Numbered from the stretch's first letter, positions 6,325 through 28,610 are shown. The stretch is DNA of 64,000 nt from an uncultured Acidimicrobiia bacterium (GCA_963772815.1 CAVYYV010000004.1:15418-79417), one strand, 5' to 3'. The notes: a model not told the origin generated them from the letters alone. Numbers and translations: made by a program.

Positions 6325-6460
6325 ACCTTCGACACCCGTTTGATCCAAGGCACCCAACGGGCCCGAATCCCCAACCGCCACTGGGCCAACGGCCGCACAC
6401 ACGTTCTGTTGAGCGCTCTGGTGTGGCACGCTTGCAAGGGCTCAACACGTTCCGTTTGGT
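6325..6460 (+). repeat. Partial/rearranged copy of a dispersed ~125-bp intergenic repeat family (GTTTGAC-box variant 'TTCGACACCCGTTTGATCC' followed by two ACACGTTC motifs 35 bp apart)
   Basis: Shares the boxes 'ACACGTTC(T/C)' and 'GTTTGACaccgGTTTGA' with copies at 12505-12625, 13309-13432, 17950-18040, 24361-24520 and 28485-28610. Confidence 0.5.
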
Positions 6461-6684
6461 TGTTGGTGATGGGCGCGTTGCGGATCTGATGGCCGAACGG
6501 TTGGCGGGGTGTAGGTGTCCGCGACTTGGCTTGTGGAGAGCGGTCGGCTGCTGCTGCTTCCGCTCGACGTTGCCGACTCGGCCGAGATGGTCGTTTTGTT
6601 CTCGCGTCGAGACTGTGCACCTTCCCCGGGGCGGAGGTTCCGAATCCCTCCTTGTCTAGGGAGTGTGCCCCGTATGATCGGGGG

Positions 6685-9600
6685 ATGGTTGGTACCCCTG
6701 GGCGGCAGCTGGCGGCGGTCATGTTCACCGACATGGTCGGCTTCACCGCGCTGATGGAACAGGACGAACTGCTCGGTCTGGAGCGCCGCGACCGGTACAC
6801 GTCGGTTCTGGGGAGAGAGCATGAGGCGTTCGACGGCCGAATCGTGGCGTTTTTCGGTGACGGATCGTTGAGTATGTTCACCAACTCGGTGGATGCCGTT
6901 TTGTGCGCGATCGAGATCCAGCGCCGGCTGGGCGAAGCGCCGCAGGTTCCGGTGCGGGTTGGGATTCATGTGGGAAACGTGTTGGTCGAATCGACCGGTC
7001 TGGTTGGCGACGCGGTCAACATCGCTTCGCGGATCGAGTCGTTGGGGACGCCGGGTGCGGTGACGGTGTCGGACTCGGTGTACGACCAGGTCAAGAACCA
7101 ACCTCAGTTCGGCTTTGTGAGTCTGGGCCGGTTCTCGCTCAAGAACGTCGATCGTCCGTTCCAGATCTACGTGGTGACGGCAAGGGGTCTGCCGGCCCCC
7201 GCGGTCGGCGCCGTCTTTGACGGCAAAGGCACACAGCTTGCCGACTCGGACGGGCGCGGACCCGTTCTCCTTGATCGGGATCGAGAGCTCGACGCCATGA
7301 GCGCACTGCTGGATGGGGTGGGCTCGTCGGGCGGCAAGGTGCTGTTGGTGCGTGGCGAAGCCGGCATAGGCAAGAGCACTCTCGTTGACGCGTTCGTCGA
7401 ACGGCACGCGGACGCGGCACATGTACACATCGGTTTCTGTGACGATCTGCTGACGCCCCAGCCGCTAGGTCCCTTCTGGGACATGGCCCGTGATGAACCG
7501 TCGCTTTTGGAACCCCTGGAGATCGGTGATCGCCGAGGGCTTATGGAGGCGCTCTTGGATCTGCTTGCCCGCAAGCTTCGGCCGACGGTGCTCATCTTGG
7601 AGGACACGCAATGGGCAGACGAAGCAACCCTCGACGTGATCAAGTACGTGGGTAGGCGAACGTCCAAGACCGACGGGATGCTGATCCTCACCTATCGAGA
7701 CGGTGTGGTGGACTATGACCATCCACTCCGAGCGGTGATCGGAAGCCTTCCTCCACAGGATCTTTCGAGGATCCATCTCGATGGTCTCTCACCGGTGGCG
7801 GTAGCGGCGATGGTCGATGAATCAGAGCTCGATGCCGCCGAAGTCCTCACCCTGACCGGGGGGAATCCGCTGTTCGTCACCGAAGTGATTGCCTCGGGTA
7901 TGAGTGACGTCCCTACGTCGATTCAAGATAGTGTCCTGGCCAGAGCGGCGAGCCTCTCCGCAGAGGCACGGAGCGTGCTCGATCTCGTCTCGGTCATCCC
8001 GGGAAAGGCGGAACCGGCCCTGATCGAAGGACTAGTCGGACCGAGGCACGAGCACTTGGCCGAATGTGTCCGACGCGGTCTTCTCCGCGACGAGGACGAC
8101 GGAGTTTCCTTCAGTCACGAAGTCGTCCGACGTTCTGTCGAGGCCGCATTGACCACGGGTGCCCGTCGTGCCCTCAACGAGGCAGTGCTCACCAGACTTG
8201 CCGGGTCGGGCGACCCTTCCCGGCTGGCCCACCACGCCCGCGAGAGTGGGGACGTCGAGGCGATCATCCGATTCGTCCCCGAGGCGGCCAGGGCCGCGAT
8301 CGCCGCCGAGAGTCACCGAGAGTCACTGGCCCACTTCCGAACGCTCGAACCGTACCTGGACCGGATATCCCAAACCGACCGGGCCGCCATCGTCGACGAC
8401 TGGGCCCGCAGCGAGTGGTACCTCGACAATGCCGAATCGCTCGACATTCTCGCCAGAGCCATCGAACTGCACCGCTCCAACAATGACAAGATCGCGTTGG
8501 CAAAGACGCTGACTTTCGCGGTGCGTGTGAACGAGGTGAACGGCCGCCCGGAAGTCGCCGACGCGTGCTCCACTGAATCGGTGGCCATCCTCGAGTCGTC
8601 CCCGCCGAGCGAAGACCTAGCCTTTGCGGTCGCCCAGCAGGCCTGGCTGGCGATCATGCGTGGCGAGAGCGAACGCGCGCTCGAGCATGCCAACCGGGCA
8701 ATCGGCATCGCAGAGCAGACGGGCGCCGAGCTGGCCATGATCTACGCCCTCAACACCAGGGGCTTCCAGCTCTATGTCAACGGCGATGACACAGGTCTCG
8801 ACGTGCTGGAGGAGGCCCGGCGCCGAGCCGAAAACGCCGGCTTCCGGTCGGAGGAAGTCAGGGCGCTTCTGAACATGGCCGCTGCGGCGATCGAACTCCG
8901 TAGATTGACGCTGGCAGAGGACCTGGCGCGCAGGACCATTGCGACCGCCGTTCGATACGACGTGCAGGTCTTCGAGGCGTACGCGCGAGCTCAGCTCGCA
9001 CAGGTGCTGGAGTGGAAGGGCGACTGGGAAGCAGCCGAAGACGCCGCCACCGACGTGCTCGGCTCGCTCCCACATCACGACGTGTTCGCAGGTTGGGTGT
9101 TGGGGACACTGTGGGCACGCCGGGGCCGGCCCGACGCGCGAGCTACGCTCGATCGGGTATGGCAGATGGCCGAGACGTCCGGTGAGATGCAGAACCTGCT
9201 CCCGGCCGCTGCTGCACTCGCAGAGTACCTGTGGCTGACAGGGGAGATCGATGCCGACCTGATCGCTCGCTTCCTGGACGTGCTCGACAGAGGTCTCGAA
9301 TTCGGGTTCTCATGGGCGGGCGGAGATCTCGCCATCTGGCTGTGGAAGTTGGGTGAACTCACCGAGGCGCCGGAGGGGATCGCCGAACCGCACCGACTCC
9401 TGATAGAGGGTCGGTCTGGCGAGGCGGCCGAACGATGGGCAGCGATCGGCTGCCCCTACCAGCAAGCGATTGCCCTTGCTCACGGGGACCGCACAGTCCA
9501 ACTCGAAGCACTCGAGATGCTCGAAACCCTCGGCGCCACCGCGGTGGCGGCCAAACTCAGAAAGGCCTTGCGGGATCAGGGGGTGTCGGTACCGCGTGGC

Positions 9601-9828
9601 AGGAGCAAAGCGGCTCGGTCTCATGCAGCGGGCCTCACCGCCCGGCAAGCGGAAGTGCTCTCGCTGCTCGCCGAGGGTCTCTCGAACGTCGAGATCGCCG
9701 ACCGGCTGTTCCTGTCGCCGCGAACCGTTGAGCACCACGTCGCCGCCGTGATCAGCAAGCTCGACGTGTCGACGCGTGACGACGCCGTCGAGGTAGCCGC
9801 CGAGCAGGGTCTCTTGACCGCCCCGTAG
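6685..9828 (+). CDS. Large ATP-binding LuxR-family regulator with N-terminal class III adenylyl/guanylyl cyclase domain, AAA/NB-ARC ATPase, TPR-like helical region and C-terminal LuxR HTH
   Basis: Cyclase motifs 'AVMFTDMVGFTALME', 'VAFFGDGSLSMF', 'GIHVGNVLVE...GDAVNIASRIE'. P-loop 'VRGEAGIGKSTLV'. LuxR HTH 'LTARQAEVLSLLAEGLSNVEIADRLFLSPRTVEHHVAAVISKLDV'. Start chosen at the ATG at 6685 ('MVGTPGRQLAAVMF'). Confidence 0.85.
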   Translation: MVGTPGRQLAAVMFTDMVGFTALMEQDELLGLERRDRYTSVLGREHEAFDGRIVAFFGDGSLSMFTNSVDAVLCAIEIQRRLGEAPQVPVRVGIHVGNVLVESTGLVGDAVNIASRIESLGTPGAVTVSDSVYDQVKNQPQFGFVSLGRFSLKNVDRPFQIYVVTARGLPAPAVGAVFDGKGTQLADSDGRGPVLLDRDRELDAMSALLDGVGSSGGKVLLVRGEAGIGKSTLVDAFVERHADAAHVHIGFCDDLLTPQPLGPFWDMARDEPSLLEPLEIGDRRGLMEALLDLLARKLRPTVLILEDTQWADEATLDVIKYVGRRTSKTDGMLILTYRDGVVDYDHPLRAVIGSLPPQDLSRIHLDGLSPVAVAAMVDESELDAAEVLTLTGGNPLFVTEVIASGMSDVPTSIQDSVLARAASLSAEARSVLDLVSVIPGKAEPALIEGLVGPRHEHLAECVRRGLLRDEDDGVSFSHEVVRRSVEAALTTGARRALNEAVLTRLAGSGDPSRLAHHARESGDVEAIIRFVPEAARAAIAAESHRESLAHFRTLEPYLDRISQTDRAAIVDDWARSEWYLDNAESLDILARAIELHRSNNDKIALAKTLTFAVRVNEVNGRPEVADACSTESVAILESSPPSEDLAFAVAQQAWLAIMRGESERALEHANRAIGIAEQTGAELAMIYALNTRGFQLYVNGDDTGLDVLEEARRRAENAGFRSEEVRALLNMAAAAIELRRLTLAEDLARRTIATAVRYDVQVFEAYARAQLAQVLEWKGDWEAAEDAATDVLGSLPHHDVFAGWVLGTLWARRGRPDARATLDRVWQMAETSGEMQNLLPAAAALAEYLWLTGEIDADLIARFLDVLDRGLEFGFSWAGGDLAIWLWKLGELTEAPEGIAEPHRLLIEGRSGEAAERWAAIGCPYQQAIALAHGDRTVQLEALEMLETLGATAVAAKLRKALRDQGVSVPRGRSKAARSHAAGLTARQAEVLSLLAEGLSNVEIADRLFLSPRTVEHHVAAVISKLDVSTRDDAVEVAAEQGLLTAP

Positions 9829-10439: not shown

Positions 10440-11246
10440 GTGAAAGCAGGGATATCCAGGTCCGGTCGTGAAGAGCTGGCCGCGGTGACCAGCCGCGGTA
10501 GGCGCCTTGTCACGGTGGACGTCGTCGTCGACGGGTTGGGGCTGGGTCGTACCGAAGCGGCGAAGAAGCTGGCGCGGTGGGCTGAGCAGGGGTGGCTCCG
10601 GCGCGTTCGGCGCGGACTCTATATCCCTGTGCCCGTAGACGTGGAGCAGCCTGATCTATGGTCCGAGGATCCGCTTGTTCTGGCTAATGCAGTCTGGTCG
10701 CCGTGCTATTTCACGGGCTGGACAGCTGCCAACCACTGGGGACTGACCGAGCAGATCTTCCGAACAACTGTTGTGAAGACTTCTCGTCGCGTGAGAGCGG
10801 CGAGTCAGCGGCTCCTGGATCACGATTACCTGATCGGACATACACCCGATTCGACTATGGCTTGGGGGATGCGGACCGTGTGGCGACAGGAGCACCGGAT
10901 CAACGTGGCAGATGAATCACGGACGGTTGTCGACATCCTTGACGATCCCAGGATTGGTGGCGGCATTCGTCACGTTGCGGAGATCCTGTCCGCGTACGTG
11001 GCTGACTTCGAAGGGGACCAGGTCGTCGACTACGCGGAGCGCCTGGGCAACAGGACGGTATTCAAGAGGCTGGGTTATCTGATCGAGGCCATGGGGATTC
11101 CTGATGATGACCTTGTGGCTGCGTGCCGGAGTCGGATCTCGGGAGGTGTCTCCCTCCTTGACCCGGGAGCGTCTGACACAGGACCCCGCATAAGCGAGTG
11201 GGGTCTGCGCGCCAACGTCCGCCTTGAAGGGAACGCTTCGTTGTGA
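10440..11246 (+). CDS. abiEi: AbiEi-family antitoxin / transcriptional regulator (type IV TA, abortive infection)
   Basis: N-terminal AbiEi_4-like wHTH ('LVTVDVVVDGLGLGRTEAAKKLARWAEQGWLRRVRRGLYIP'). GTG start. 4-nt ATGA overlap with the downstream AbiEii gene. Confidence 0.8.
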   Translation: MKAGISRSGREELAAVTSRGRRLVTVDVVVDGLGLGRTEAAKKLARWAEQGWLRRVRRGLYIPVPVDVEQPDLWSEDPLVLANAVWSPCYFTGWTAANHWGLTEQIFRTTVVKTSRRVRAASQRLLDHDYLIGHTPDSTMAWGMRTVWRQEHRINVADESRTVVDILDDPRIGGGIRHVAEILSAYVADFEGDQVVDYAERLGNRTVFKRLGYLIEAMGIPDDDLVAACRSRISGGVSLLDPGASDTGPRISEWGLRANVRLEGNASL

Positions 11247-12418
11247 TTCCGCACGGTGAGATCCTCGCCCTCCGTGGCGAGTGGAATCTACGAGGCGACG
11301 TCATCGAGAAGGACTACGTGCTCGGATGGATGCTCGCCGCCATCGCCCAACAGCCCGAGCTCACGGACACATGGGTGTTCAAGGGAGGGACGTGCCTACG
11401 GAAGTGCTATTACGAGACTTATCGCTTCTCTGAGGATCTGGATTTCACAGTGATCGAGGGAGGACCGGAGACTCCCGAAGACCTGCTCCCAATATTCGCT
11501 GGAGTAGCCGAACGCCTTCTTGATCAGTGCGGGCTCGAGATCTTCGTCGATCAGAAGACCTTTGTACGACAAAGGAACCGCCGAGGAAACCCAACCACGC
11601 AAGGTCGGGTCGCCTTCAGAGGCCCGAGCAATCCACCGAGCCTGCCCAAACTCAAGATCGACCTCACGAGCGACGAGGCGTTCACCGGCCCGCGTCACAG
11701 CCGGCAGGTGCTCCACCCATACAGCGACGCCGAACAGTTGACCTGGGAGGTGACCGCCTACTCCCTACCTGAGTTGCTGGCCGAGAAGATCAGGGCGCTC
11801 GCCGAACGGTGCAGACCACGCGATCTCTACGACGTCGTGAACGTTCATCGACACCCCGATCTCTTGGGAGACCCAGACCCTGTCCGAGCAGGCCTCAAGG
11901 AGAAGTGCGTGTACGTCGGGATTGACGTCCCGACCGCGGACTCAATTGCCGACTCTTCTTTCAAGGATGAACTCGAACAGGAATGGGAGAACATGCTGGG
12001 ACATCAGTTGCCTCATCTTCCTCCCGTAGCCGAGTTCTGGAACTCGCTGAATAGTGCCTTCGGCTGGCTGGAAGGAGAACCCATGGCGGTTCTCGACCGA
12101 GCACCCTTTGATGCCTCGATAGACGCCGCGTGGGTGCCGCCCCGAGCAATGACCACTTGGCGCCGCGCGGCTCCGCTCGAACTGATCCGATTCGCCGGGG
12201 CAAACAGACTGAGAGTTGAGATCGACTACCGACCGGCCGAGGGGCGCTGGGAGCCGCGTGTTGTCGAGCCGTTGTCGTTTCGGATGACTCGCGTGGGACA
12301 CCTGCTCCTCTACGTCATCAACGATCGTGGCCTACTCCGCAGCTATCGGGTGGACAGAATTGCCGGAATCCGTGTGCTCGATGAGAGCTTTACTCCGCGT
12401 TACTTTGTCGAATTCTGA
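11243..12418 (+). CDS. abiEii: AbiEii/AbiGii-family nucleotidyltransferase toxin (DUF1814) with a ~110-aa C-terminal WYL-like domain extension
   Basis: NTase motif 'VFKGGTCLRKCYYETYRFSEDLDFTV'. C-terminus 'LRVEIDYRPAEGRWEPRVVEPLSFRMTRVGHLLLYVINDRGLLRSYRVDRIAGIRVLDESFTPRY' follows the WYL-domain pattern (V.I.Y...R.V.P..L...WYL.A....R.FRLDRI), with WYL replaced by LLY. Confidence 0.8.
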   Translation: MIPHGEILALRGEWNLRGDVIEKDYVLGWMLAAIAQQPELTDTWVFKGGTCLRKCYYETYRFSEDLDFTVIEGGPETPEDLLPIFAGVAERLLDQCGLEIFVDQKTFVRQRNRRGNPTTQGRVAFRGPSNPPSLPKLKIDLTSDEAFTGPRHSRQVLHPYSDAEQLTWEVTAYSLPELLAEKIRALAERCRPRDLYDVVNVHRHPDLLGDPDPVRAGLKEKCVYVGIDVPTADSIADSSFKDELEQEWENMLGHQLPHLPPVAEFWNSLNSAFGWLEGEPMAVLDRAPFDASIDAAWVPPRAMTTWRRAAPLELIRFAGANRLRVEIDYRPAEGRWEPRVVEPLSFRMTRVGHLLLYVINDRGLLRSYRVDRIAGIRVLDESFTPRYFVEF

Positions 12419-12504
12419 TGTCTGACGTATGGCGCCGTCAGGATCGAGCCCCGTGCAACCGTTAACTTGTAGTAAGGAGGACGATGGAAGTCAGCACCAG
12501 GACC

Positions 12505-12625
12505 GACCACGTCTTAACTCCCTCGCGGGAGCCTGGGCAGGTTTGACTCCCGTTTGACCGCGAATTCGGAATCACCCGGTTGGGCCCGTTGTAGCTGGCC
12601 TTTCTGTCCCAACACGTTCCACTTC
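12505..12625 (+). repeat. Copy of the dispersed ~125-bp repeat family, immediately downstream of mazF-like gene
   Basis: 'accacgtcttaactccctcgcgggagcctgggcaggtttgactcccgtttgacc...cccaacacgttccactt' aligns with the copy at 13309-13432. Confidence 0.6.
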
Positions 12626-12634
12626 GCTCGGATT

Positions 12635-12973
12635 TCAGTAGTTCAGGAGCGTCTTGATGACGCTGGCGACTTGTTGGCTGGTGTGGGCGTCGACGCTGCC
12701 GAGTCGATGTACGAGCCGGGCCCGGTTGACCGATCGAATCAGTTCACACTGGACGTAGCTGATCTCGTCGAGCCCGGTGTCTGGGGTCGGTTCGACTTTG
12801 ATGTGGAGGGACAGCCCACGTGGGGTGGTTGTCAGTGGGGTGACGATCACAAACGGGAAGTCCGGTCCGAAGGTTTCGGGCGGACCTACTACCAGGGCGG
12901 GCCGATGAGCTGCCGGCTCTCCAGGGTATGGCTCGCCGAAGTCGACGAGCCATAGGTCATCGATCGATGCCAT
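12635..12973 (-). CDS. mazF: PemK/MazF-family type II toxin (mRNA interferase)
   Basis: 'WLVDFGEPYPGEPAAHRPALVVGPPETFGPDFPFVIVTPLTTTPRG' matches the MazF/Kid fold signature. Overlaps the upstream antitoxin ORF by 17 nt. Confidence 0.8.
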   Translation of the reverse strand: MASIDDLWLVDFGEPYPGEPAAHRPALVVGPPETFGPDFPFVIVTPLTTTPRGLSLHIKVEPTPDTGLDEISYVQCELIRSVNRARLVHRLGSVDAHTSQQVASVIKTLLNY

Positions 12974-13202
12974 CCGCTACCGAGGTTGCGTCCGCTTCGG
13001 CCAGGTATGCCTTCCAGGCGTCTTGGTCGGTCCTGAGTTCTGCCAGTTCGGCAGCCACCTGGTGAGCGAATCGCTGCCTACCGAGTGCCTCGGTGGCGTC
13101 GCGGATGGTTTCGATGAGCGTCCGTCCTGACTCTCTGCTGAGCGCCTGTAGCCGAGCGTGGGTTTGGGTGTCGACCCGGATGGTGGTGGTAGCCATGAAC
13201 AC
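12957..13202 (-). CDS. Ribbon-helix-helix (CopG/ParD-like) antitoxin partnered with the MazF-like toxin
   Basis: 81 aa; N-terminal 'TTIRVDTQTHARLQALSRESGRTLIETIRDA' is RHH-like. Sits immediately upstream of, and overlaps, the toxin gene. Confidence 0.65.
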   Translation of the reverse strand: MFMATTTIRVDTQTHARLQALSRESGRTLIETIRDATEALGRQRFAHQVAAELAELRTDQDAWKAYLAEADATSVADGIDR

Positions 13203-13203
13203 C

Positions 13204-13238
13204 AGTCTACAGATTGTATATATGTGAGTCTACAGACT
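13204..13238 (-). promoter_or_regulatory. Candidate antitoxin operator/promoter: direct repeats AGTCTACAGA flanking a TATATAT element right at the mazE-like start
   Basis: 'cagtctacagattgtatatatgtgagtctacagactc', directly 5' of the start at 13202 on the minus strand. Confidence 0.3.
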
Positions 13239-13308
13239 CGGGGTGACGGATCAGGCAGCGTCGTTCGATCACAGTTGAACAGTTTCCGCTTCCTAGGGCC
13301 CGAAGCGC

Positions 13309-13432
13309 GACAACACGTTCTACGTCCCTACGGGAGCCAGGGCGGTTTGACACCGGTTTGAGGGTGCGCCCCAGATCACGCGGACTTCGCCCGTGGCAGC
13401 TGGCTTCTATGCCCCTACACGTTCTATTGGGC
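13309..13432 (+). repeat. Most complete copy of the dispersed ~125-bp repeat family (terminal direct ACACGTTCTA motifs, internal GGGAGCCAGGGCGGTTTGACACCGGTTTGAGGG box)
   Basis: 'caacacgttctacgtccctacgggagccagggcggtttgacaccggtttgagggtgcgcc...cccctacacgttctattgggcg'. Confidence 0.6.
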
Positions 13433-13519
13433 GTGTCGTCGAGGGCTCCCGCCAGCGGTCCCTCGTCCGGGCCATTCGGCCCTTACCGTCGGGAAGGGCT
13501 CCAGTGATGATCACAACAC

Positions 13520-14032
13520 ATGAGTGACCATGGAGAACCCCCCGCCGGCGGAAGGATCCACAAGCCCTCCCGACTCCTCAAGTTCGTCTTCGACATGCCC
13601 TCCGTCATGTACCGCTGGGGTCTGGGTTGGATGATGGGCAAGCGGATCCTGGCGGTGACCCACACCGGTCGGAGAAGCGGCAAGACATACCAGACGGTCC
13701 TCGAGGTGGCGCTCTTCGATCCCAAGACCGAGGAGAGCATCGTCGCATCCGCCTACGGGACCGAGGCCGACTGGTACCGGAACATCCGGGCCGAGCCCGC
13801 CTCCAGAGTGCAGACGGGACGACTCGACTACACCCCCGAGCAGAGGTTCCTCAGCCCCGAGGAAGCCATGGAGGCTGCGGCGATGTTTTGCCATCGGCAC
13901 CCCTGGGAGGCCAAGCTGGTCCCTCGGGTCCTGCCATCCATCGGGGCGGTCATTCCAAGGGACACCAACGCTGCCCCCGAAGAGTTGTTGGGATCGTTGC
14001 CGATGGTGGGCTTCCGCCCCAAGCGGGACTGA
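13520..14032 (+). CDS. Deazaflavin (F420H2)-dependent nitroreductase family protein (Ddn/PPOX-like, DUF385)
   Basis: 'MPSVMYRWGLGWMMGKRILAVTHTGRRSGKTYQTVLEV...ADWYRNIRAEPASRVQ' matches the Ddn-like family. Paralog at 27883..28377. Confidence 0.8.
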   Translation: MSDHGEPPAGGRIHKPSRLLKFVFDMPSVMYRWGLGWMMGKRILAVTHTGRRSGKTYQTVLEVALFDPKTEESIVASAYGTEADWYRNIRAEPASRVQTGRLDYTPEQRFLSPEEAMEAAAMFCHRHPWEAKLVPRVLPSIGAVIPRDTNAAPEELLGSLPMVGFRPKRD

Positions 14033-14319
14033 GATCTCACGAAAAGCTTTGGGCCCGATCCCGTGATCCACATCGCCACGACAACCCGTCCCATTTCGCT
14101 ATGAGGCCGCCTCCGTCGCCGACTTCGGCTCCTATCACTGGCTCGCTTGGCGCATGTGGGCGACCAGCCTGTCCACCCCTCCTGAGCCGTGTCATCTGTC
14201 CCGGGCCGAGATCGAGGAGCTGGCGGTGGGAAGAGCAGGGGATTGAACCATCAACTGCATCGCTTGCCCTCATGCGAATGCCGCGCCTGCCCGGACACCC
14301 CGATCAAGAATGGCCCAGC

Positions 14320-15217: not shown

Positions 15218-16717
15218 TCAGGGCTGTCGGTTCGAGATGCGGAATACCGGGATTTGCTCGGACACCCCCTTCATGGCGCCTGAGACCGGCTCGACGTCAT
15301 AGCCGGCGAGCAGTTGGCCCACACCCTCGGCGTCCAGGATGTCCTGGGTGATGAGGATCTCGCTTGCCCCGGCCAGTTGCTGGGTGCGGGCCGCGATGTT
15401 GACGTTCTGTCCGAAGTAGTCGAGTCGCTCGTTGAGGGTGACGGCTACCGAGTGACCTCTGTGCACTCCCACTTTCAGCTCCATCGGCCGCTCGCGGGCG
15501 GCGGTCTCGTTTCGGATACTGTCCACCATGTCGACGGCTGCCGACACGGCGTGGGTGGGTCTCAGGAAGGTGGCCATCACCGCGTCACCGATGGTCTTCA
15601 CCAAGACGCCGTGGTGTCTCGACACTGCTTTGTCGAGAATGTCGAAGTGGACTCTCACCAGGTTGTAGGCGGTGACGTCGCCTATCTCGTCGTACATTGC
15701 GGTCGAGTCCTTGAGGTCGGTGAACAGGTAGGTCAGGTCTGTGACCGAAAGGCCTTCACCCTCGGGCGGCGCCTCCATTCGAAACAGCCGACGAAACAGG
15801 GGCGTATTGAGGAGTCGTTTCGCCGACAGCGGACCCGAGTTCTCAACGTTGGCGACCACCTCCGCTATGAAGGTCGACGGATACTTGACTATCCAGACGG
15901 GCCATCTCCAGGACGATTCGTTCCTGCAGGTGAGATGAATGCCGCCGGGTCCGACGGCATGGACTGCGGGGAGTAGCAGGGTGCCGATCGGTGTCTCGAT
16001 CGGCACCTTCGAGGTAGGGATTCCCGGGTGGCCCAGCCCGTCGTCATCGAAGGTCAACACGAAGTGCCTGGTGATCTTCTCCTCGTCGCGCAGGACGGCG
16101 AAAGCGATCGACGTCGTCCAGTCACGCACGAGGAGCGTTCCCTCCTCGAGATCGACGTCGAATTCGGCGCGTTCGGCGGGCTCGACATATTGGAGAGCCG
16201 CCGTGACGTCGCGCAGGAGATCCACGGTGGCCATGTCACCGACATTGGTCCGTGCCGCCCGGCTGTAGTGAAAGTCGAACAGCAGCTGTTCGAGGGTCAA
16301 CTCATCGGGGTGATGAAAGACGATCTCCCGGACAACGGGATCGATCGTGAAGACGACCTGGATGACGTCGTCGAGCCTGGATTGGTTTTCCATGTCACAT
16401 AGGGTGCAGTGGAAGTGTGGGTCGACCTCCTCGAGGGCGCGGAAACTCTTGAAGACGTTGCCGCACGACACACAGACGATGTTCCATTCCATCCGGAACA
16501 GGCCGGCGGTGGTCGCCTGGAGGAACAGATCGATCACCGCGGACTGGTCGAGTCCCCTCTCGTCGGCGTATCGAATCGGGTTGACCCTGAACACTTCGAC
16601 ATCCGACGACGTGCCGACGAAGTCACCCAGGCCTTCGACAAGAGCAGCATCGGCACCCGAGGCGATGATTCTCTCAAGACACGAGAGGAGTGATGACTCG
16701 TCGAGTGAAACGCCCAA
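15218..16717 (-). CDS. Class III adenylate/guanylate cyclase with N-terminal Cys-rich (zinc-ribbon-like) regulatory domain
   Basis: C-terminal cyclase domain ('LTYLFTDLKDSTAMYDEIGDV...VKTIGDAVMATF...GVHRGHSVAV...GQNVNIAARTQQLA'). N-terminal domain with 'CVSCGNVF...HCTLCDMEN'. Confidence 0.8.
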   Translation of the reverse strand: MGVSLDESSLLSCLERIIASGADAALVEGLGDFVGTSSDVEVFRVNPIRYADERGLDQSAVIDLFLQATTAGLFRMEWNIVCVSCGNVFKSFRALEEVDPHFHCTLCDMENQSRLDDVIQVVFTIDPVVREIVFHHPDELTLEQLLFDFHYSRAARTNVGDMATVDLLRDVTAALQYVEPAERAEFDVDLEEGTLLVRDWTTSIAFAVLRDEEKITRHFVLTFDDDGLGHPGIPTSKVPIETPIGTLLLPAVHAVGPGGIHLTCRNESSWRWPVWIVKYPSTFIAEVVANVENSGPLSAKRLLNTPLFRRLFRMEAPPEGEGLSVTDLTYLFTDLKDSTAMYDEIGDVTAYNLVRVHFDILDKAVSRHHGVLVKTIGDAVMATFLRPTHAVSAAVDMVDSIRNETAARERPMELKVGVHRGHSVAVTLNERLDYFGQNVNIAARTQQLAGASEILITQDILDAEGVGQLLAGYDVEPVSGAMKGVSEQIPVFRISNRQP

Positions 16718-17949: not shown

Positions 17950-18040
17950 TGTTGATTCCCGTTTCTTGACGAGACCTGAGCCAAACGGGGGGCCTGACGA
18001 ACGCGTCCCGCCACCGGCCAACACGTTCTATTTCGGCGTT
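17950..18040 (+). repeat. Partial copy of dispersed repeat family (ends in CAACACGTTCTATTTCGG)
   Basis: 'gttgattcccgtttcttgac...ccaacacgttctatttcggcg'. Confidence 0.45.
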
Positions 18041-18805: not shown

Positions 18806-19829
18806 AGCGGTGGTCGACGGCCCGCTGGATGCGTCGGTGAGCGGGATTGAAGATGGCGGCGGCGGCGAGGGTAGAACCGGCGACAACCAGATCGTTGGAT
18901 TCGCCGAGGAGGCGGGCAAGCAGCAAGACGGGGATGGCGTAGACCGCGGCGACCACGGCGGCGACGAGGGCGTAGGTGACGGTCCGGGAGACGATCCGAT
19001 CAATGTCGTACAGGCGGTACCGGGTAATGGCCACTCCGAACGAAACGGGGATCAACATGTAGATCACGAGGACGGTTCCCCAAATGACGTTTCCATTGTC
19101 TCCGGCGGTGAACTTCGGGTCGGCGATGAGCCACCCTAGGAGAACGAGGATGCACACGCCCAGTAGCGCCATGGTGGCGAGCACGGGCTTGTATCGCATG
19201 CGCAGTTCTGGAGTGGCCCGGCGCCCCCTCAGGACCACTCCGACGGCGGCAGCGATGAGGAACGCCGTCACGGCGGCGTTGGTAACGGCGCCGGTTGATT
19301 CGGGGAGCCATGGGAGTCCGGTGGGGTTGGCGCCGATGAGGATGCTGGCGTCGTTGACATCGGTGACTGTGGGGGTGAGGAACCCGCCGAGGACCATTGC
19401 GGTAGCGATCCAACCGGCGATCCTCCACCACCGCGAGGGGCGACCGTCTGGGAAGAGGATGAGCAACCAGGTGAACAGGGCGAACATCAGTGTGAAACCC
19501 CATCCGTCAAGCCAGTCGACCCAGAGAATCGAGAGCCATGGCAAGTCGCTGGCGGTCATTTGGAGGACGACACCTAATCCGCACAGCACCCAGCCGATCG
19601 GATGCGACCCAACCTTGCGCAGGATTATGTAACCGGCGGCATAGAACGGAAGGGCAACAAAGGGACTCAAGTACAGCCCGCCCATCCGAACGCCGACGGC
19701 GACCGCCAGGGCGAGCATAAGTCCGAGGAGCACGAGGGCGGCAGAGCCTGGCGAGACGCTAAGAGGTCGCGTCCTCGTCACTCGGTTGGAAGAGATCTCG
19801 TTCATCGCTGGGCCACTATCGCAGGGCAA
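18627..19829 (-). CDS. Polytopic membrane protein (≥8 TM) with conserved cytoplasmic C-terminal domain; paralog of 21072..22244
   Basis: Hydrophobic helices throughout. C-terminal block 'ITRYRLYDIDRIVSRTVTYALV...AGSTLAAAAIFNPAHRRIQRAVDHRFNRSKY' is shared with the paralog ('ISRYRLFEIDRIISRTVGYGLV...[31 protein letters not shown]'). Confidence 0.75.
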   Translation of the reverse strand: MPCDSGPAMNEISSNRVTRTRPLSVSPGSAALVLLGLMLALAVAVGVRMGGLYLSPFVALPFYAAGYIILRKVGSHPIGWVLCGLGVVLQMTASDLPWLSILWVDWLDGWGFTLMFALFTWLLILFPDGRPSRWWRIAGWIATAMVLGGFLTPTVTDVNDASILIGANPTGLPWLPESTGAVTNAAVTAFLIAAAVGVVLRGRRATPELRMRYKPVLATMALLGVCILVLLGWLIADPKFTAGDNGNVIWGTVLVIYMLIPVSFGVAITRYRLYDIDRIVSRTVTYALVAAVVAAVYAIPVLLLARLLGESNDLVVAGSTLAAAAIFNPAHRRIQRAVDHRFNRSKYNTQREVDLLSDRLAEGVSLGGVVDDLSDTIQRTMAPATAAVWLREPSPAEGQP

Positions 19830-20042
19830 CGTTCCGTCATCGTTACGGAACAGCGCCGTGGGCTGGCCTTGCGTCAGGCCGCCCGGATCATCGGGATTGA
19901 CTACGGCTACCTGGGCCGGTTGTGTCGAGGTGAGCGGTGCCCGAGCAGGGAGGTGGCGGAGCGTTGATCGCGGTGCTGGACCTGGACTCGTGAGGTGTGT
20001 CTGATTTAATGTCGCACGTTCCGGATGTTTCAGACCGCATGG

Positions 20043-20492
20043 TCATGGTTCTGGAGTGTGGTTGTGGCGATGGTAATCGATGCGTCGTTTCCGGGCTTGT
20101 GCGAGTCCTTTCTTGCGGGCGGCGCGGACGGCGGGTCCTTGGCCGCGGTGTTCTTGGTCGGGGGTGACGTAGCCGATGCCGGCGTGGAGTCGCACCCCGT
20201 TGTAGTGGCGACGGCGGATCTCGAGTTCTTTACGGAGCACGTCGATGTCTTCGATCAGGTCGAGGTGGGGGAACTCGCCTTTGAGGTGCCCGAAGAACGA
20301 TTCGATCCACGCCTGGTCGGTGGGGGTTCCGGGCCGCCCGTAGTGGGTGGCCAGCCAGCACAGGGCCATGAACTCTCGGCTCGATCCTGACGTCATTTGG
20401 GGTCCGTTGTCTGACATGACCAACAGCACCGGCAGCCGCTCGTCTGCGGGGTCGTAAGGCTGGGATCCGTCGGGGCTGCGTTCCTCGATCAC
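20043..20492 (-). pseudogene. Truncated IS transposase OrfB (rve/DDE integrase core lacking first catalytic Asp region)
   Basis: 'VLLVMSDNGPQMTS...YGRPGTPTDQAWIESFFGHLKGE...YNGVRLHAGIGYVTPDQ' is an rve-domain C-terminal two-thirds. Only ~35 aa precede the DNG motif, so the N-terminal catalytic region is deleted. In frame with orfA after a TAA stop. Confidence 0.65.
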
Positions 20493-20519
20493 GTCGAGGA
20501 GTTCTTCGTCTCTGAGGCC

Positions 20520-20864
20520 TTAGGTGAAAGCGGTCTGCACCTGGATCGAGGTTTCCTCGGTGGAGGTGACATCGGAGATCCATTTGCGGGACACCACGTC
20601 GGTGATCACCACCGAAGCCTCCGCCTCCGCCCGGGCCTCGGCCAGCTCGAAATCTCTCTCCCGCTTGCCGGGACGGGAACGAGCCAGGGCGTCCAATGCC
20701 CCCTGACGGGCCACGTCACGCAGCTTCGAAATGGTGGAACGATCCACCCCGGAGCGGTCAGCCGCCTCGCCTATCGTGGTCTCACCCTTGACCAGCTGCA
20801 TCCAGATCTCGTACTTCTCCTGCGGCGCCAAGAACCGCTTCTTCTTCCTCGGTGGGGTACTCAA
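20520..20864 (-). CDS. IS transposase OrfA (HTH + coiled-coil)
   Basis: 'KKKRFLAPQEKYEIWMQLVKGETTIGEAADRSGVDRSTISKLRD' matches an IS3-type OrfA HTH. Confidence 0.65.
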   Translation of the reverse strand: MSTPPRKKKRFLAPQEKYEIWMQLVKGETTIGEAADRSGVDRSTISKLRDVARQGALDALARSRPGKRERDFELAEARAEAEASVVITDVVSRKWISDVTSTEETSIQVQTAFT

Positions 20865-21071
20865 GCAAGCCTCCTTCAGGCTCAGCCCAGAACCCTCCCA
20901 TGCTGGCTGAATCCCACCCGGAATAGCGACACGAAATCAGCCCCACGACACTCGGGGGTGGCGGAGGAGTTGGGGGCGGTGGCGGTGGAGCGGGCTGAGG
21001 GTTTGGCGGCTTCGTACCGGTCTCGTAACGGGGGATGGTAAGACTCTTGCGGTGTGGTGAGGTAGGTCTGA

Positions 21072-22244
21072 TTGATGCGGCGTCGCTGGATGTTGGCTCC
21101 ATGGGTATGGAGCGGAGTAGTCGTTGTTGCAGGTGCGGTCTCTATGGCTGCCGGTGGGCATGACTCCTTCGGCGTGGGGTTCAGTCTGGTTTTCGTGGGG
21201 ATCCTCCTGGCGTACGCCGTCCTGGCGTCTCTGATCGCTGTAAAACAACCGGGAAACGGGATCGCCTGGCTCCTCTTGATCACGGGGGTCTTCCTCTTCG
21301 TCCAGGTCACTACGACAGGGTCGTTGGCGACTTGGCCGCTGCCCGGGTCGCGATCTGCCTGGTACTTCACGTATATGGGGGTCTACAGCTTCGTGGGTTT
21401 GTTCTTCTTCTATCCGCTGAGCCTTCTCTTCTTCATCTTTCCCACCGGCGATTTCCTCACCAGGCACTGGAGGTGGCCGGTGTGGATCGGTGCGGTCTCC
21501 GGCCCCCTATCGGTCTTTATCTTGGTGTTCTCGGACAGGGTTGGACCCCTGTATGGGTCCTGGAAGATCACAAATCCGATCGGGTTCCTTCCCGCCCAGC
21601 TCTTCGACTCGGTTCTGGTGGTCATCGCGGCCACCATCCAGTTGGTGGCAATCGGCGGCGTGGTCGCCTTGGTGGTGCGGTTCCGACGGTCGTCCGAGGT
21701 CGTCCGCGCTCAGGTCAAATGGGTGGTCTTTGCCGGTGTGCTGATCGTTCCCCTGTTCGTCATCGTCGCGGTTGCTGAGGATTCATCGACGCTGTTTGGG
21801 TTGGCGTTCCTGGCCGTGCTTTTGTTGATACCCGTGGCGATCACGGTGGCGATCAGCCGCTACCGGCTGTTCGAGATCGACCGGATCATCTCCCGCACGG
21901 TGGGTTACGGCCTGGTTGTGGCCGCCCTCAGTCTTGTCTACGTGGTGGGAGCGGTGTGGCTTCCCACCAGGATCATGGGGGAGCAGCCCCAGTTGTTCGT
22001 GGCCGGGTCGACTCTGGTGGTGGCGGCATTGTTCAACCCGGTGCGGAGACGGGTGTTGTCCTGGGTGGATCGTCGCTTCAACCGGTCCCAATACGACGCC
22101 CAACAGGTAATCGACAGGTTCGCTGACCGCCTCCAGGACGGGCTGGATGTGAGCCAGTTGACCGCCGAGTCGGTGGAGGTGGTTGCCGAGGTCATGCAAC
22201 CGGACATGGTCGGCGTTTGGGTGCAGAGCCAAGCGACTGAATAG
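21072..22244 (+). CDS. Polytopic membrane protein, paralog of 18627..19829
   Basis: See the paralog. The same conserved C-terminal cytoplasmic block is present. Confidence 0.75.
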   Translation: MMRRRWMLAPWVWSGVVVVAGAVSMAAGGHDSFGVGFSLVFVGILLAYAVLASLIAVKQPGNGIAWLLLITGVFLFVQVTTTGSLATWPLPGSRSAWYFTYMGVYSFVGLFFFYPLSLLFFIFPTGDFLTRHWRWPVWIGAVSGPLSVFILVFSDRVGPLYGSWKITNPIGFLPAQLFDSVLVVIAATIQLVAIGGVVALVVRFRRSSEVVRAQVKWVVFAGVLIVPLFVIVAVAEDSSTLFGLAFLAVLLLIPVAITVAISRYRLFEIDRIISRTVGYGLVVAALSLVYVVGAVWLPTRIMGEQPQLFVAGSTLVVAALFNPVRRRVLSWVDRRFNRSQYDAQQVIDRFADRLQDGLDVSQLTAESVEVVAEVMQPDMVGVWVQSQATE

Positions 22245-24360: not shown

Positions 24361-24520
24361 AACACCTGTGTTGGGGCGTTGAAGCGTTTCGGACTTCTCC
24401 GTTTCCCTCGAGCCGAACGACGACCGGGGGTCTGATCTGGTTTGGTGCCGAGTACCCGACCCATCGGAACCCCCTCAGATGGCACAGCTCTATCCACTCC
24501 AACACGTTCTAGTTCGGCTT
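24361..24520 (+). repeat. Degenerate copy of dispersed repeat family (ends CAACACGTTCTAGTTCGG)
   Basis: 'ccctcgagcc...gggggtctgatctggtttggtgccg...ctccaacacgttctagttcgg'. Confidence 0.45.
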
Positions 24521-25053: not shown

Positions 25054-26046
25054 GTGGTGCGTGCGGCGTGGTACGAACGTCAAGGTCCTGCCCATGAGGT
25101 CGTCGAGGTGGGGGAGATGCCCGAGCCTCATGCCGGTCCCGGCGAAGTCCGGGTCCATCTGGCGACCTCGGGGGTCAACCCGTCAGACGTGAAACGCCGC
25201 GGCGGATGGCGCGGTCAGCAGATGCCCTTCGACCGGATCGTGCCTCACAGCGACGGAGCCGGAGTGATCGACGAGGTCGGCGACGGTGTCGGCTCGGCGA
25301 GGATGGGTGAACGGGTCTGGGTCTACAACGCACAGTGGAAGAGGCCCTTCGGCACGGGCGCCGAGTACGTGGCGCTTCCCGCGGCCCAGGCGGTCCACCT
25401 GCCCGATGGGTCCGGGTTCCCTGCCGGAGCGTGTCTCGGGATTCCCGGGATGACCGCTCACCGGTGCGTCTTCGCAGATGGCGCCGTCGAGGACAAGACC
25501 GTCCTCGTCACTGGAGGAGCCGGGAGCGTCGGCTTCTACGCCGTTCAATTGGCCAAGTGGGGCGGGGCGACCGTGATCACCACGGTGAGCAGCGGGGCCA
25601 AGGCCGAGGTTGCCGCATCCGCGGGAGCCGACCACGTTCTCAATTACCGGGAGGACGACGTGGCCGGCCGCATCATGGAGATCAGCGACGGCGCGGGCGT
25701 AGACCACATCGTCGAGGTGGACTTCGGCGCCAACCTGCCGGTGGGCGACGCGGTCCTCAAGCGGCACGGAGTCATTGTCACGTACGCCTCCATGAGCAAG
25801 CCGCAGCCCGTTCTTCCCTTCTACTCCCTCATGGTGCGGAACGTGCTGATCCGCTTCGTGTTCGTCTACGAGGAGCCGCCGGCCGAGCTGGCGCGGGCGA
25901 CCCGGGATATCGACACCTGTCTCGAAGAAGGGTTCCTCCGGCACCTCATCGCCGAACGCTTTCCCCTCGGAGAGACTGCAGCGGCTCACGTCGCCGTCGA
26001 GAGCGGTCGCCTCATCGGCAACGCGGTGATCGACGTCGGTTCGTGA
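25054..26046 (+). CDS. NADPH:quinone oxidoreductase / zinc-independent MDR family (Qor-like)
   Basis: 'VLVTGGAGSVGFYAVQLAKWGGATVITT' Rossmann motif. Qor-like N-terminus 'GEVRVHLATSGVNPSDV'. Start assumed at GTG ~25054. Confidence 0.8.
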   Translation: MVRAAWYERQGPAHEVVEVGEMPEPHAGPGEVRVHLATSGVNPSDVKRRGGWRGQQMPFDRIVPHSDGAGVIDEVGDGVGSARMGERVWVYNAQWKRPFGTGAEYVALPAAQAVHLPDGSGFPAGACLGIPGMTAHRCVFADGAVEDKTVLVTGGAGSVGFYAVQLAKWGGATVITTVSSGAKAEVAASAGADHVLNYREDDVAGRIMEISDGAGVDHIVEVDFGANLPVGDAVLKRHGVIVTYASMSKPQPVLPFYSLMVRNVLIRFVFVYEEPPAELARATRDIDTCLEEGFLRHLIAERFPLGETAAAHVAVESGRLIGNAVIDVGS

Positions 26047-26060
26047 CCCCGGCCGCTTCC

Positions 26061-26545
26061 TCAGGTTCGGCCTGTGGCCCCGAACCGCTTGAGGGTGAGC
26101 GTCTCTCCGACCTCGACCCCGAGGTTCCGTGCGTCGGCGATCTCGAGGACAGCCGACGCCAGTGCCAGGTCCTGGAGGCCGGTTCCGGTGGACTTGAACA
26201 GGGTGAGTTGCTCGGGCGCGGTCCGGCCGGGGTGCAGCCCGGCCACCAGCGAGCCGAGAGACCGGGATCGATCCGGGTCCAACCCCCGCTCGACCGCGGC
26301 CACGGCGTCACCGGCCTGTTCGTAGCCGAGCTCGACGGAGTCGCAGACGATGGGATCGAAGCAGTCGACGAAGCGGGCATCGACCACGTCGCGCATCTCG
26401 TCGATGAACTCGGACCGGTTGGCCGCGTTGCGTGAGAAGACGCGGATCTCCTCGACTGGCCGAACGGCCTGCAGGGCAGGCAGTTGGGACCGAGCCACGG
26501 ATCCGGTGCCGATGACGGCGACTCGCTCGAGGGCCGACAAAGGTG
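26061..26545 (-). pseudogene. Truncated inverted duplicate of the 3' half of the ornithine cyclodeaminase/mu-crystallin gene at 35683..36675 (~99% identical, with a 168-bp in-frame internal deletion)
   Basis: Protein of ORF 26061..26540 equals residues ~115-331 of the 35683..36675 product, minus 'STVDEAV...GRFDL' (56 aa). Nucleotide identity is visible, e.g. 'ctcaccctcaagcggttcggggccacaggccgaacctga' at both loci. Confidence 0.7.
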
Positions 26546-26574
26546 CACGACAAGTCTGATCAGCCCACGTGCGG

Positions 26575-27361
26575 CATCACTGCTTCGGCCCACAACTGAG
26601 CGACCTCTTCCCACGCATACTCGGGAGGAGTCACGAGGAAGCTCTCCAGTCCGATCGAGCGGAGTTCGCGGGACGCGGTCGATGCAATCACCTGGTGTAC
26701 CGGAAATAGTGAATCTGTGCACGAGGTAGTCGGATATCAGCTCGACCGGGACCCGTTCTTCTAGGGGCCGGCTGATGTCGAACGCCTCCATGAGGCGCCG
26801 GACTCCTTCGCGCTCGGCCTCCGGTACCGACTCGAGCGACAGCCGGAAGTTGTGATGGGCTCGGTTGGCGATGCGGCGGCGGGCGAGCTTACGAGCGGTC
26901 TCGCCGTCCTCCGACACATAGATGATGCCGGCTGCCATGAGATGGATCGACTCCGGGTCCCGACCTGCCTCCGCAGCACCCTTGGCGATGCGTTGACGAG
27001 CGGACTCGATCACGTCGCGGTCGAATCCGCTCCCCAGCATCACGCCATCGGCGACCCGGTCCGCCGCCTCGAGGCCTCTGGGCCCGTCCACCGCGAAGTA
27101 GATCGGCACCGTGGTGTCACCGGCCGAGTAGCGAAGACCAACCGGACCGACTGCCGACTCCACCGTGCCACCGGTGAGCAACGCGTGGATCGTCTTCGTC
27201 GCCTGCTCCATGTCAGCAAGCCGGGTCGGCTTGCGACCGAACGTGTACGTGCTGGCATCGCCGGTTCCGATGCCCAGGACGAAGCGACCTCCCGTGATCT
27301 GGTTGGCCGTGGCCGCCTGCCCCGCCAGCAGCGTCGGGTCACGAAAGACCACGTTGGTCAC
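26575..27361 (-). CDS. LLM-class F420-dependent oxidoreductase, 3'-truncated by the duplicated cyclodeaminase fragment (probable pseudogene)
   Basis: 'FVLGIGTGDASTY...' LLM family. Recognisable sequence stops near '...FTISGTPGDCIDRV', after which ORF 26012..27361 reads the duplicated segment out of frame. Confidence 0.65.
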
Positions 27362-27882
27362 CGCGGTGCCCAGAGTGATGCGACTGGTGACGAATCGAGC
27401 AGCGGTGATGAGCTGAAACGGGTCGAGGACCGAGATCTGACCATCTGCGACGAACAGCCCCGAGTAGTCCTACTCCTCCGTCAGTCGAACCCTGGAGAGG
27501 AACGGCTCGAAATCCGTCGACGACGCGTGTAGATAGAACTTGGTCATCGACTCCTCGCCACCGAGATGGATCGAGAGAAAATCCTAACGCCGGAGTAGGA
27601 CATGTGGCGATGGAAACGCCATCTACCACAGGCGAGATCGCGCGACTGGAGGAGCACCGTCAAACGGGGTCAAATCGGAAACCTCCTGAGCCCGTCGACC
27701 CGGGGAGGCCCGCCGTTGTCATCCCACACGCGACATCTGGATCCACCGGGGGGGTACGGTCGGGTCCGATTCGTGCCGGCCTATATGAGGCAGGCGACGG
27801 ACCGTGCGTCGGTCAGTGCCTGATGGATAGGGGCTTGTCTGCTCGGATTTGACCGGTTGAGCCCGCGGAGCATTATGGCAGA

Positions 27883-28377
27883 GTGCTCGAGCGTCTCTTT
27901 CCCCCGGACCGCCCACCGACGGGCTGGCGTCGTCTCCTCCTAGGCTCGCCGGTCTACCTATGTCGGATCGGACTCGGCCGCCTGTTCGGTCATCGACTGT
28001 TGGTGATCACCCACCGGGGACGGCACCCAGGACGCATCTACCGGACCCCGGTTGAGGTTGCCAGATACGACTCGGCCACCGAAGAGGCGATAGTGCCCTC
28101 GGGGTGGGGACCACAGGCGGACTGGTACCGCAACATCCAGGCATCGCCCGCCACCGAGATCTGGCTTGCCGGGCGCCGCTTCCGCCCCCAACAGCGGTTC
28201 CTCTCTGAGTCCGAGGCGGCGGCCGTGATGGCGGATTACGCCCGGCGCCATCCGCGGGGAGCGCGCGAGCTGACACGCTGGATGCTGGGCCGTCGGTACG
28301 ACAGCGCCCACCAAGTCGGGGACGCGCTCGCCGCCAAGGTCCCTTTCGTCGGTTTCCGGCCCCCCTCGCCACCTTGA
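27883..28377 (+). CDS. Deazaflavin (F420H2)-dependent nitroreductase family protein, paralog 2
   Basis: 'VITHRGRHPGRIYRTPVEVARYD...ADWYRNIQASPATEIW' parallels 13520..14032. Confidence 0.8.
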   Translation: MLERLFPPDRPPTGWRRLLLGSPVYLCRIGLGRLFGHRLLVITHRGRHPGRIYRTPVEVARYDSATEEAIVPSGWGPQADWYRNIQASPATEIWLAGRRFRPQQRFLSESEAAAVMADYARRHPRGARELTRWMLGRRYDSAHQVGDALAAKVPFVGFRPPSPP

Positions 28378-28484
28378 CCCCGGTTCTACAGCTCATCGGT
28401 GGTGCACTGAAATTCGGGTTGAGCCTAGGCGACCTACGCAGCTGGATGGACCAGTTCTAGGTGGGCGACCGCTCCCTTTCCAAC

Positions 28485-28610
28485 GCTCGATAGAACGTGG
28501 TTGGGACGGAAGAGCCGGGTAGCACGGGCGAAATCGCGTGATTGCGGGAGCACCGTTGAACGGGCGTCATACCCGCCCTGGCTCCCGGCATCCGACCAAA
28601 GTAGGACCTG
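28485..28610 (-). repeat. Inverted-orientation copy of the dispersed ~125-bp repeat family
   Basis: Reverse complement reads 'ccgggagccagggcgggtatgacgcccgttcaacgg...cccaaccacgttctatcgagcg', collinear with 13330-13432. Confidence 0.55.

Follow-up and report, generated by a model that had tools for sequence, protein, structure and literature searches.

In a 64,000-nucleotide stretch of DNA from an uncultured Acidimicrobiia bacterium (GCA_963772815.1 CAVYYV010000004.1:15418-79417; the whole of this stretch is called the window below), intergenic repeats of one family mark the limits of what appear to be exchangeable blocks of genes. A complete repeat consists of two direct half-sites, GTTTGAC-N4-GTTTGA, and a box, CCAAC-NN-GTYCTA, on their 3′ side. 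Judging from sequence comparisons, we propose that these repeats may be double-stranded site-specific recombination sites bounding gene cassettes in a long co-oriented array, a proposal toward which our belief and our doubt are about equally divided. The boundary sites are best explained as a kind that is not present in the databases we searched. An earlier reading of the same DNA (the original prediction) had recognized the repeat family; the co-orientation of its copies, the long array, and the role of the copies at cassette boundaries are additions to that account, and the finding is larger than the one it described.

The argument for cassette boundaries comes from the points at which homology between related loci begins or ends, and six such points could be placed. 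Two metagenome loci, L009 and L015, are 99.7% identical over 3637 bp that include two copies of the element; identity stops at box+5 of the second copy, and the sequence past this position is unrelated. For L010 and L023 it is the downstream sequence that is shared (99%), with identity beginning inside the box, and the element bodies upstream of it are two different family members, beyond which the flanking sequences are unrelated. The window and L034 match at 93.5% over 690 bp carrying a gene related to F420H2 reductases. The match is continuous from window position 13435, which is box+9 of the copy designated C, with unrelated element bodies upstream of the boundary, and it ends at 14101 (L034 10582), which is box+8 of the independently detected site CGACAACCCGTCCCATTTCGCTA. 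Finally, L035 and L036 are 97.8% identical over a mazEF cassette; identity sets in at box+9 or +10, counted from elements that differ between the two loci (L035 2146 / L036 881), and at the other end of the cassette runs through box+8 (L035 1289 / L036 25) before the sequences diverge. One rule would fit all six junctions, namely that the element, its box, and the next 8 nt go with the cassette on the 5′ side and that the next cassette starts at +9; four junctions fall precisely between the eighth and ninth base past the box, the L009/L015 junction is off by 3 nt, and that of L010 and L023 is uninformative within the conserved core. The breakpoints lie in unconserved sequence beside the conserved core, outside the best-conserved bases, where crossing-over within shared homology would not put them and where a protein bound to the core and cutting at a set distance from it would.

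That the repeat family is real, as the original prediction held, was confirmed by profile searches, by motif counts compared with shuffled sequence, and by a box matrix. A profile built from four copies recovers copies B (12492-12631; E=5e-36, as a training member), C (13298-13436), F (28476-28627, minus strand), and G (27591-27733, minus strand), the last of these a full copy absent from the earlier list, and it gives a weak match at 3418-3448, on a box at 3418-3445 that had been put forward as a possible seventh copy. A broader profile of 19 members, relatives from other contigs included, shows the latter to be part of a diverged copy (3424-3489, E=1e-5) and also detects copy E (24427-24518, E=8e-6), copy A (6328-6414, E=0.004), a solo box (17235-17257, E=0.011), and, by its 3′ box only, copy D (18017-18039, E=0.016). 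Sequences within two mismatches of AACACGTTCTA occur 21 times in the window against 5.1 expected, a count equaled in 0 of 100 shuffles, and the 21-nt box matrix has 14 matches against 0.9 expected, those outside its training set being at 13308-13328, 14079-14099, 28596-28616, and 34264-34284. In total the window holds four clear full copies (B, C, F, and G), five diverged copies, and several solo boxes. Every site is intergenic, as had been stated for the copies first listed, and the region from about 35 to 64 kb has no copy of the element.

Two cassettes adjoin copies B and C. Copy B (12492-12633, plus strand) is a full copy with a 5′ box-like sequence at 12505-12518, GGGAGCCTGGGC, a tandem box at 12541-12557, and a 3′ box at 12613-12621; we infer that the cassette boundary follows 12629, and the mazEF cassette that the window shares with L035 and L036 starts a few bases past it. 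A solo box, CAACACGTTCTA (13308-13328, plus strand; 15.9 bits, outside the training set), closes the mazEF cassette directly before copy C. This full copy (13329-13434, plus strand) contains GGGAGCCAGGGCGG, a tandem box at 13346-13362, and a 3′ box at 13418-13426, with the boundary between 13434 and 13435. The unit that follows is a 680-bp single-gene cassette encoding an F420H2-quinone-reductase-like protein, with a box at either end; the box-like site CGACAACCCGTCCCATTTCGCTA (14079-14101, plus strand; 17.4 bits, outside the training set) closes it. The mazEF cassette, which in the other contigs has 87-89% DNA identity to that of the window, has a different cassette in front of it each time: in the window this is AbiE, in L035 it is HTH_20-HEPN, and in L036 it is an HTH_31 gene.

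The remaining sites of the window are more diverged, apart from two full copies on the minus strand. The leftmost (3424-3510, plus strand) has a tandem box GTTTGAC-CCC-GTTCGAC at 3427-3443 and a degenerate 3′ box near 3497-3508, and resembles a subfamily from other metagenomes (CCAAATCCGCAACAACGACAGACC). In copy A (6328-6460, plus strand) a degenerate tandem box at 6327-6343 is followed by the box CACGTTCTG at 6400-6408 and a second, solo box CACGTTCCG at 6446-6454, which score 16.1 and 19.0 bits with the box matrix. The solo box CCCAACACGTCCTACTTCGG (17234-17256, plus strand; 27.8 bits) lies upstream of a GYD gene. Copy D (17950-18038, plus strand; 29.3 bits) consists of GTGTTGATTCCCGTTTCTTGAC, 54 nt, and a box at 18022-18030, and copy E (24427-24519, plus strand; 30.0 bits) of GTCTGATCTGGTTTGG, 57 nt, and a box at 24503-24511. 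On the minus strand, full copy G (27584-27733; E=1e-32) has the tandem box GATTTGAC-CCC-GTTTGAC and the box CACATGTCCTA at 27606-27596, and full copy F (28476-28627) has a 5′ box-like sequence at 28616-28596, GGGAGCCAGGGCGG, a tandem box, and a 3′ box at 28499-28491. The weakest assignment is a diverged minus-strand copy at 34264-34350 (GCTGACGTTGGTGTGAG, about 53 nt, box CCTACCCGTTCTATTGAAC; 16.3 bits).

The anatomy of the site was drawn from the alignment of the 19 members and a table of about 30. Four blocks are conserved: G-GTTTGAC-N4-GTTTGAC; a weak block resembling (C)GAAATCCCC; GGC; and the box yCCAAC-NN-GTYCTA, which is followed by a semi-conserved nTTCk. The half-sites GTTTGAC-N4-GTTTGA are direct and 11 bp apart, and the suggestion that half-sites one helical turn apart point to protein binding was, in our judgment, right. 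GTT in the second half-site and CA.GT.C in the box are invariant, and the central dinucleotide of AAC-NN-GTT is variable (AC, CC, GC, GT, or TC). From the second half-site to CACGT the distance is 53-57 nt, about five helical turns, in 17 members and 45 nt, about four turns, in the subfamily of L016 and L025, so that the spacing shifts by about one helical turn. In copies A, D, and E a tandem box, though degenerate, is still recognizable 54-57 nt before CACGT, which argues that they are old diverged full copies and not chance motifs.

Some features first ascribed to the whole family belong to part of it. The family-wide shared unit is about 95-100 nt rather than the roughly 125 bp proposed earlier, and of the terminal direct motifs there remains a clear flanking box in C and weaker box-like sequences in B and F. 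The GGGAGCCAGGGCGG block is present in B, C, and F and lacking in the remaining copies; together with the 5′-side box-like sequence it is confined to this subfamily of the window, and the resulting box-body-box arrangement is read as a cassette without a gene. Identity among the copies of one genome is only 60-75%. In L016 and L025, which are orthologous loci, the element is about 93% identical and the flanking genes 78%, which indicates that the element is under selection. The sites in question (L016 1630-1722, L025 2002-2080) come from an organism of 56% G+C and have, in the spacer that separates tandem box and 3′ box, a conserved terminator-like hairpin with TTTT behind it; the element begins where a QueC-like gene ends, directly past its stop codon, and an excisionase-like gene comes after the element.

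The site works as DNA, not as RNA. As the original prediction had it, conservation is in sequence rather than in structure: RNAalifold predicts 0 pairs over the 19 members, and single-strand RNA and DNA folds of eight members are not more stable than those of shuffled sequences and are mostly less so, with z-scores of -1.8 to +0.75 for RNA and, for four members on both strands, +0.5 to +1.5 for DNA. Rfam has no match at the gathering score in the whole window, and only chance-level matches at E up to 10 in 12400-13600. A structured non-coding RNA, riboswitch, or shared 5′ leader might have been expected from the copies placed 40-100 nt before a gene of the same orientation (C, G, and the L020 copy) and from the ability of C and F to form a helix between GGGAGCCAG and CTGGCTYCT, but half of the copies have no co-oriented gene downstream, and with the folding and Rfam results we give this explanation almost no credence. 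A remnant of coding sequence was ruled out: no frame is open in all members, and each frame has stops in at least 5 of the 19.

The array is long, and its sites point the same way. All of the sites are co-oriented in L038 (9/9), L035 (7/7), and L036 (3/3). DNA of a sister strain (ENA ERZ25039549 contig_84916), which is 99.5-99.9% identical to the window and collinear with it, extends the array at least 20 kb upstream of the window with at least seven further plus-oriented copies; the contexts of the GYD and MazF proteins of the same strain are likewise collinear with the window. Within the window, the plus-oriented sites all lie left of 24.6 kb, and the minus-oriented ones, four in number, are enclosed without exception by an inverted duplication whose arms (26061-26530 and 36041-36675) are 95-98% complementary. 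A single inversion of about 10 kb between these arms would explain the switch in orientation, and its reversal would restore one co-oriented array. The arms correspond to the C-terminal part of a luciferase-like monooxygenase gene. That gene is split, with an ORF (open reading frame) at 26012-27361 (minus strand) that starts at profile position 75 and an N-terminus in another frame at 27339-27629; the split gene (26012-27629, minus strand) is a frameshift or pseudogene.

Strict co-orientation and clustering in arrays are not what one would expect of a selfish transposing element without function for the genes around it, of the kind known as miniature inverted-repeat transposable elements (MITEs) or repetitive extragenic palindromic (REP) sequences. 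The original prediction had favored such an element, and its view of the family as dispersed and linked to mobility stands: the repeats are intergenic and about 100-140 bp long, box-like sequences occur on both sides of B, C, and F, and IS3 and IS256 elements are nearby. The assignment to MITEs or REP sequences is not supported. There are no terminal inverted repeats, the ends of the element being unrelated in the family alignment, and no target-site duplications around the copies; the flanking repeats are the motif of the family and not a duplicated arbitrary target. Copies within a genome are too unlike one another, the element is better conserved than its neighbor genes between orthologous loci, and what differs between contexts is whole flanking cassettes, not the element alone. 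REP sequences and the mosaic elements built from them are imperfect palindromes of 20-40 nt, as a rule clustered in alternating orientation, and here we find no conserved palindrome, none at all in most copies, and copies that are co-oriented. We regard this explanation as improbable.

A more serious rival holds that the repeats are regulatory or architectural protein-binding sites and passive hot spots for homologous recombination and assembly breaks, with a dimer of the TetR/KstR type on AAC-NN-GTT and an activator or nucleoid protein on the phased half-sites. In a literature search on the motif, the sole match was a paper on the KstR operator TnnAACnnGTTnnA (PMC1995591), and the box, CCCAACACGTTCTA, fits that operator at 7/8 fixed positions. 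The fixed AAC and GTT around a variable central dinucleotide are as in a dimer site, the helical phasing would suit an activator, the element has the same position in L016 as in the orthologous locus L025, the array is partly syntenic with L041, and a LuxR-type regulator with a cyclase domain lies inside the array with copy A upstream of it. Against this, the right half of the operator and AAC/GTT are conserved in the box and the left T is not, so that the left half of the palindrome is unconserved, and the Pfam-scanned ORFs of the window include neither a TetR regulator nor genes of lipid or steroid catabolism. Tandem half-sites always accompany the box at a distance of about 55 nt, and cassette boundaries coincide with the box. 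Roughly half of the copies precede a convergent gene, orientation relative to the downstream gene being about 50/50, and a check for a fixed distance to gene starts found a spread of about 40-550 nt to co-oriented starts. Scans around B/C and G/F found no sigma-70-like promoter and no terminator inside the four full copies. Strict co-orientation over more than 50 kb would be unexpected for operators, and homologous exchange should leave its breakpoints inside the conserved stretch, whereas those observed cluster at the unconserved box+8. The placement of copies before convergent genes and the fixed position of the breakpoints beside the box weaken the regulatory reading that the original prediction had offered as its other possibility, and we consider it unlikely.

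The system to which the proposed recombination sites come closest in logic is the integron array. As in integrons, the sites are co-oriented, one site stands at the 3′ end of each cassette, and exchange would occur at a fixed end of the site; two or more co-oriented sites separated by cassettes (13 boxes in the window, 9 in L038) are also what defines an integron cassette cluster lacking an integrase nearby (CALIN). Toxin-antitoxin cargo, cassettes without genes, small single-gene cassettes, and arrays without a nearby integrase are found in both, and such arrays are common among integrons (PMC4889954). These likenesses might suggest that the window carries a true CALIN and that the repeats are attC sites. 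We give this very little credence, and we reject attC itself because of the folding and the core motifs: unlike attC, the element has no imperfect palindrome and no single-strand DNA fold, its R''/R' pair (RYYYAAC / GTTRRRY) is missing, the boundary lies 8 nt past the core CACGTYCTA instead of within G|TT, a pair of direct repeats makes up half of the site, and the next cassette opens with unconserved sequence. The cassettes of the element, unlike those of integrons, are often several genes long. Acidimicrobiia belong to the phylum Actinomycetota, and a 2016 IntegronFinder survey found no complete integron in any genome of the Actinobacteria (PMC4889954). A literature search on integron-like systems in Acidimicrobiia found nothing.

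The layout of the element also recalls composite double-stranded sites that are recombined elsewhere. Examples are attI1 of class 1 integrons, with DR1, DR2, and a core; the 116-bp internal resolution site of Tn4430, with an IR1-IR2 core and DR1-DR2, used by TnpI; and res of the Sin/beta resolvases, with site I and a direct-repeat site II. Like these, the element is about 90-120 bp long, with the putative crossover at one end and, a few helical turns from it, two direct repeats that share one face of the DNA. Unlike these, it has no clear inverted pair in its core. The known sites occur once per element beside a recombinase gene; the element studied here is present in dozens of diverged copies, with no adjacent recombinase. 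A further parallel is offered by integrative elements accreted side by side and by their integrase-less derivatives between att sites, such as the CIMEs of streptococci, the ssrA islands of Dehalococcoides, and the tycheposons of Prochlorococcus. There, too, direct att-like repeats part cargo modules, and most modules have no integrase; in L016 an excisionase-like gene adjoins the site. The repeats of such islands, however, are near-identical and reproduce the 3′ terminus of a gene for a tRNA, a tmRNA, or a protein, whereas copies of the element are noncoding and strongly diverged outside the core, and ARAGORN found no tRNA as an integration target.

With these comparisons in hand we venture, tentatively and with more doubt than the cassette-boundary proposal itself calls for, that the sites could belong to a separate cassette-capture system, distinct from integrons, with diverged double-stranded composite sites of about 100 bp and its own recombinase acting in trans. 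Such a system would form arrays of more than 50 kb in Acidimicrobiia and would also occur in other uncultured lineages of 56-64% G+C. Relatives were found in about 15 other metagenome contigs. When JGI and NCBI metagenome contigs were scanned with a degenerate pattern, 17 loci matched, and about 12 of these are true family members (L009, L010, L014-L016, L018-L021, and L023-L025). Cluster mates of proteins of the window led to additional contigs from the same ENA sample that carry arrays with at least four sites (L034), seven sites (L035), and three sites (L036). The L034 array is complete, 9.6 kb long, and lies between purU and a CoxL-like operon. Among GTDB species representatives the pattern had 6 matches, about the number expected by chance, and none fit the profile; two scans of viral contigs gave 0 matches and 2 chance matches at 34% G+C, and blastn of the consensus found no match in plasmids and phages.

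If the repeats are cassette-boundary recombination sites, we imagine them to work as follows. A recombinase encoded outside the array would bind the core and, alone or with an excisionase-like helper, also the phased half-sites; strand exchange would take place just 3′ of the core, about 8 bp past it, and cassettes of 0.1 to about 6 kb would be excised, inserted, or exchanged between arrays. The cargo moved in this way would include mazEF and AbiE toxin-antitoxin pairs, F420-dependent reductases, cyclases, and transporters. Because no recombinase gene is found near the arrays, the enzyme would have to act in trans, as has been proposed for integron cassette clusters without a nearby integrase (PMC4889954). 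In a variant of this scheme, the repeats would be right-end attachment sites, each an arm plus a core, left by repeated side-by-side integration of small elements whose integrase has since been lost.

Several observations weigh against site-specific recombination at cassette boundaries. We searched for the enzyme by Pfam scans of about 60 ORFs of the window and in the Pfam tables of L033, L034, L035, L036, L038, and L041. No tyrosine or serine recombinase gene, and no PF00589 match, lies in the 84 kb around the array, on a contig of 870 kb, and none of the six tables shows a recombinase, those of L034, L035, and L036 included; the transposases found there and around the array are only of IS3 and IS256. 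An all-against-all blastp of array ORFs found no recurrent protein family without known function. The site as we see it is a left half-site only, with unconserved sequence to the right of the boundary, which is unusual for the cores of tyrosine and serine recombinases, and the junctions are not perfectly uniform, one being at +5 and another placeable only at or after position -10. No circular cassette and no empty site has been observed among the loci compared. The array is partly syntenic with L041, which has homologues of several array genes and where the sites are few and degenerate, which suggests that many cassettes have been stationary for long periods. Finally, all of the comparisons are drawn from metagenome assemblies, in which repeats can cause breaks and false joins. 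For the sister strain, the independent ENA assembly itself ends inside copy E, at about 24491; the repeat breaks metagenome assemblies.

The cargo of the arrays is typical of mobile arrays. Between 3.4 and 34.3 kb the window encodes AbiE and MazEF toxin-antitoxin pairs, two F420H2-quinone-reductase-like genes, a luciferase-like monooxygenase, an alcohol dehydrogenase, regulators with adenylate-cyclase domains, an IS3 remnant, duplicated HTH and membrane-protein genes, an S8 peptidase, and an SLH/cadherin protein. To the right of about 35 kb, up to 64 kb, the genes are ordinary metabolic ones. The arrays taken together contain toxin-antitoxin pairs, the insertion sequences IS3 and IS256, phage-like genes, and a gene resembling those of excisionases. 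L035 carries an HTH_17 gene. Proteins with adenylate/guanylate-cyclase domains recur as cargo within the arrays and near them (window 6526-9828 and 15218-16717; L038 8161-9606; L034 10820-13666; L041 10916-16962), and several of them are fused to AAA, TPR, or LuxR modules. The AbiEii toxin gene is intact in the window (11243-12418) and is split between two ORFs in the sister strain (L001 732-1906); most differences between the window and that strain fall in the AbiE region and in copy B.

The window also has repeats and duplications of other kinds. Three tandem repeats of 186-189 bp (3661-4187; 62-71% identity) within the SLH/cadherin gene are probably repeated protein domains. A local duplication at 18359-22244 includes two XRE-type HTH genes with 90% identity between 18422-18534 and 19851-19963, and paralogous membrane proteins of 390-400 aa (18627-19829, minus strand, and 21072-22244, plus strand) that flank the IS3 remnant (20043-20864, minus strand). 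Two pairs of intergenic repeats, each 90% identical and about 3 kb apart (43429-43470 / 46116-46157 and 46292-46351 / 49420-49479), are unrelated to the element, and the second has three further copies in L041. At 29000-30000 and 32000-34000, around molybdopterin oxidoreductase genes and a 500-aa ORF without a Pfam match, GC skew and AT skew are both extreme and the sequence contains C-rich low-complexity repeats (CCACCC...).

To our knowledge, no system other than integrons has been well described in which single genes are stored as cassettes and reshuffled. If the proposal made here is true, a second and mechanistically different cassette system would exist in Acidimicrobiia and other uncultured bacteria, and it would account for the construction of accessory-gene islands in these organisms. 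The element would then serve as a sequence signature for mobile cargo in metagenomes, among it toxin-antitoxin and defense genes and F420-dependent enzymes, and would hint at a novel recombinase with a simple, portable target. Even under a more modest reading, the element offers a practical marker for the variable regions of these genomes and for the points at which their assemblies break.

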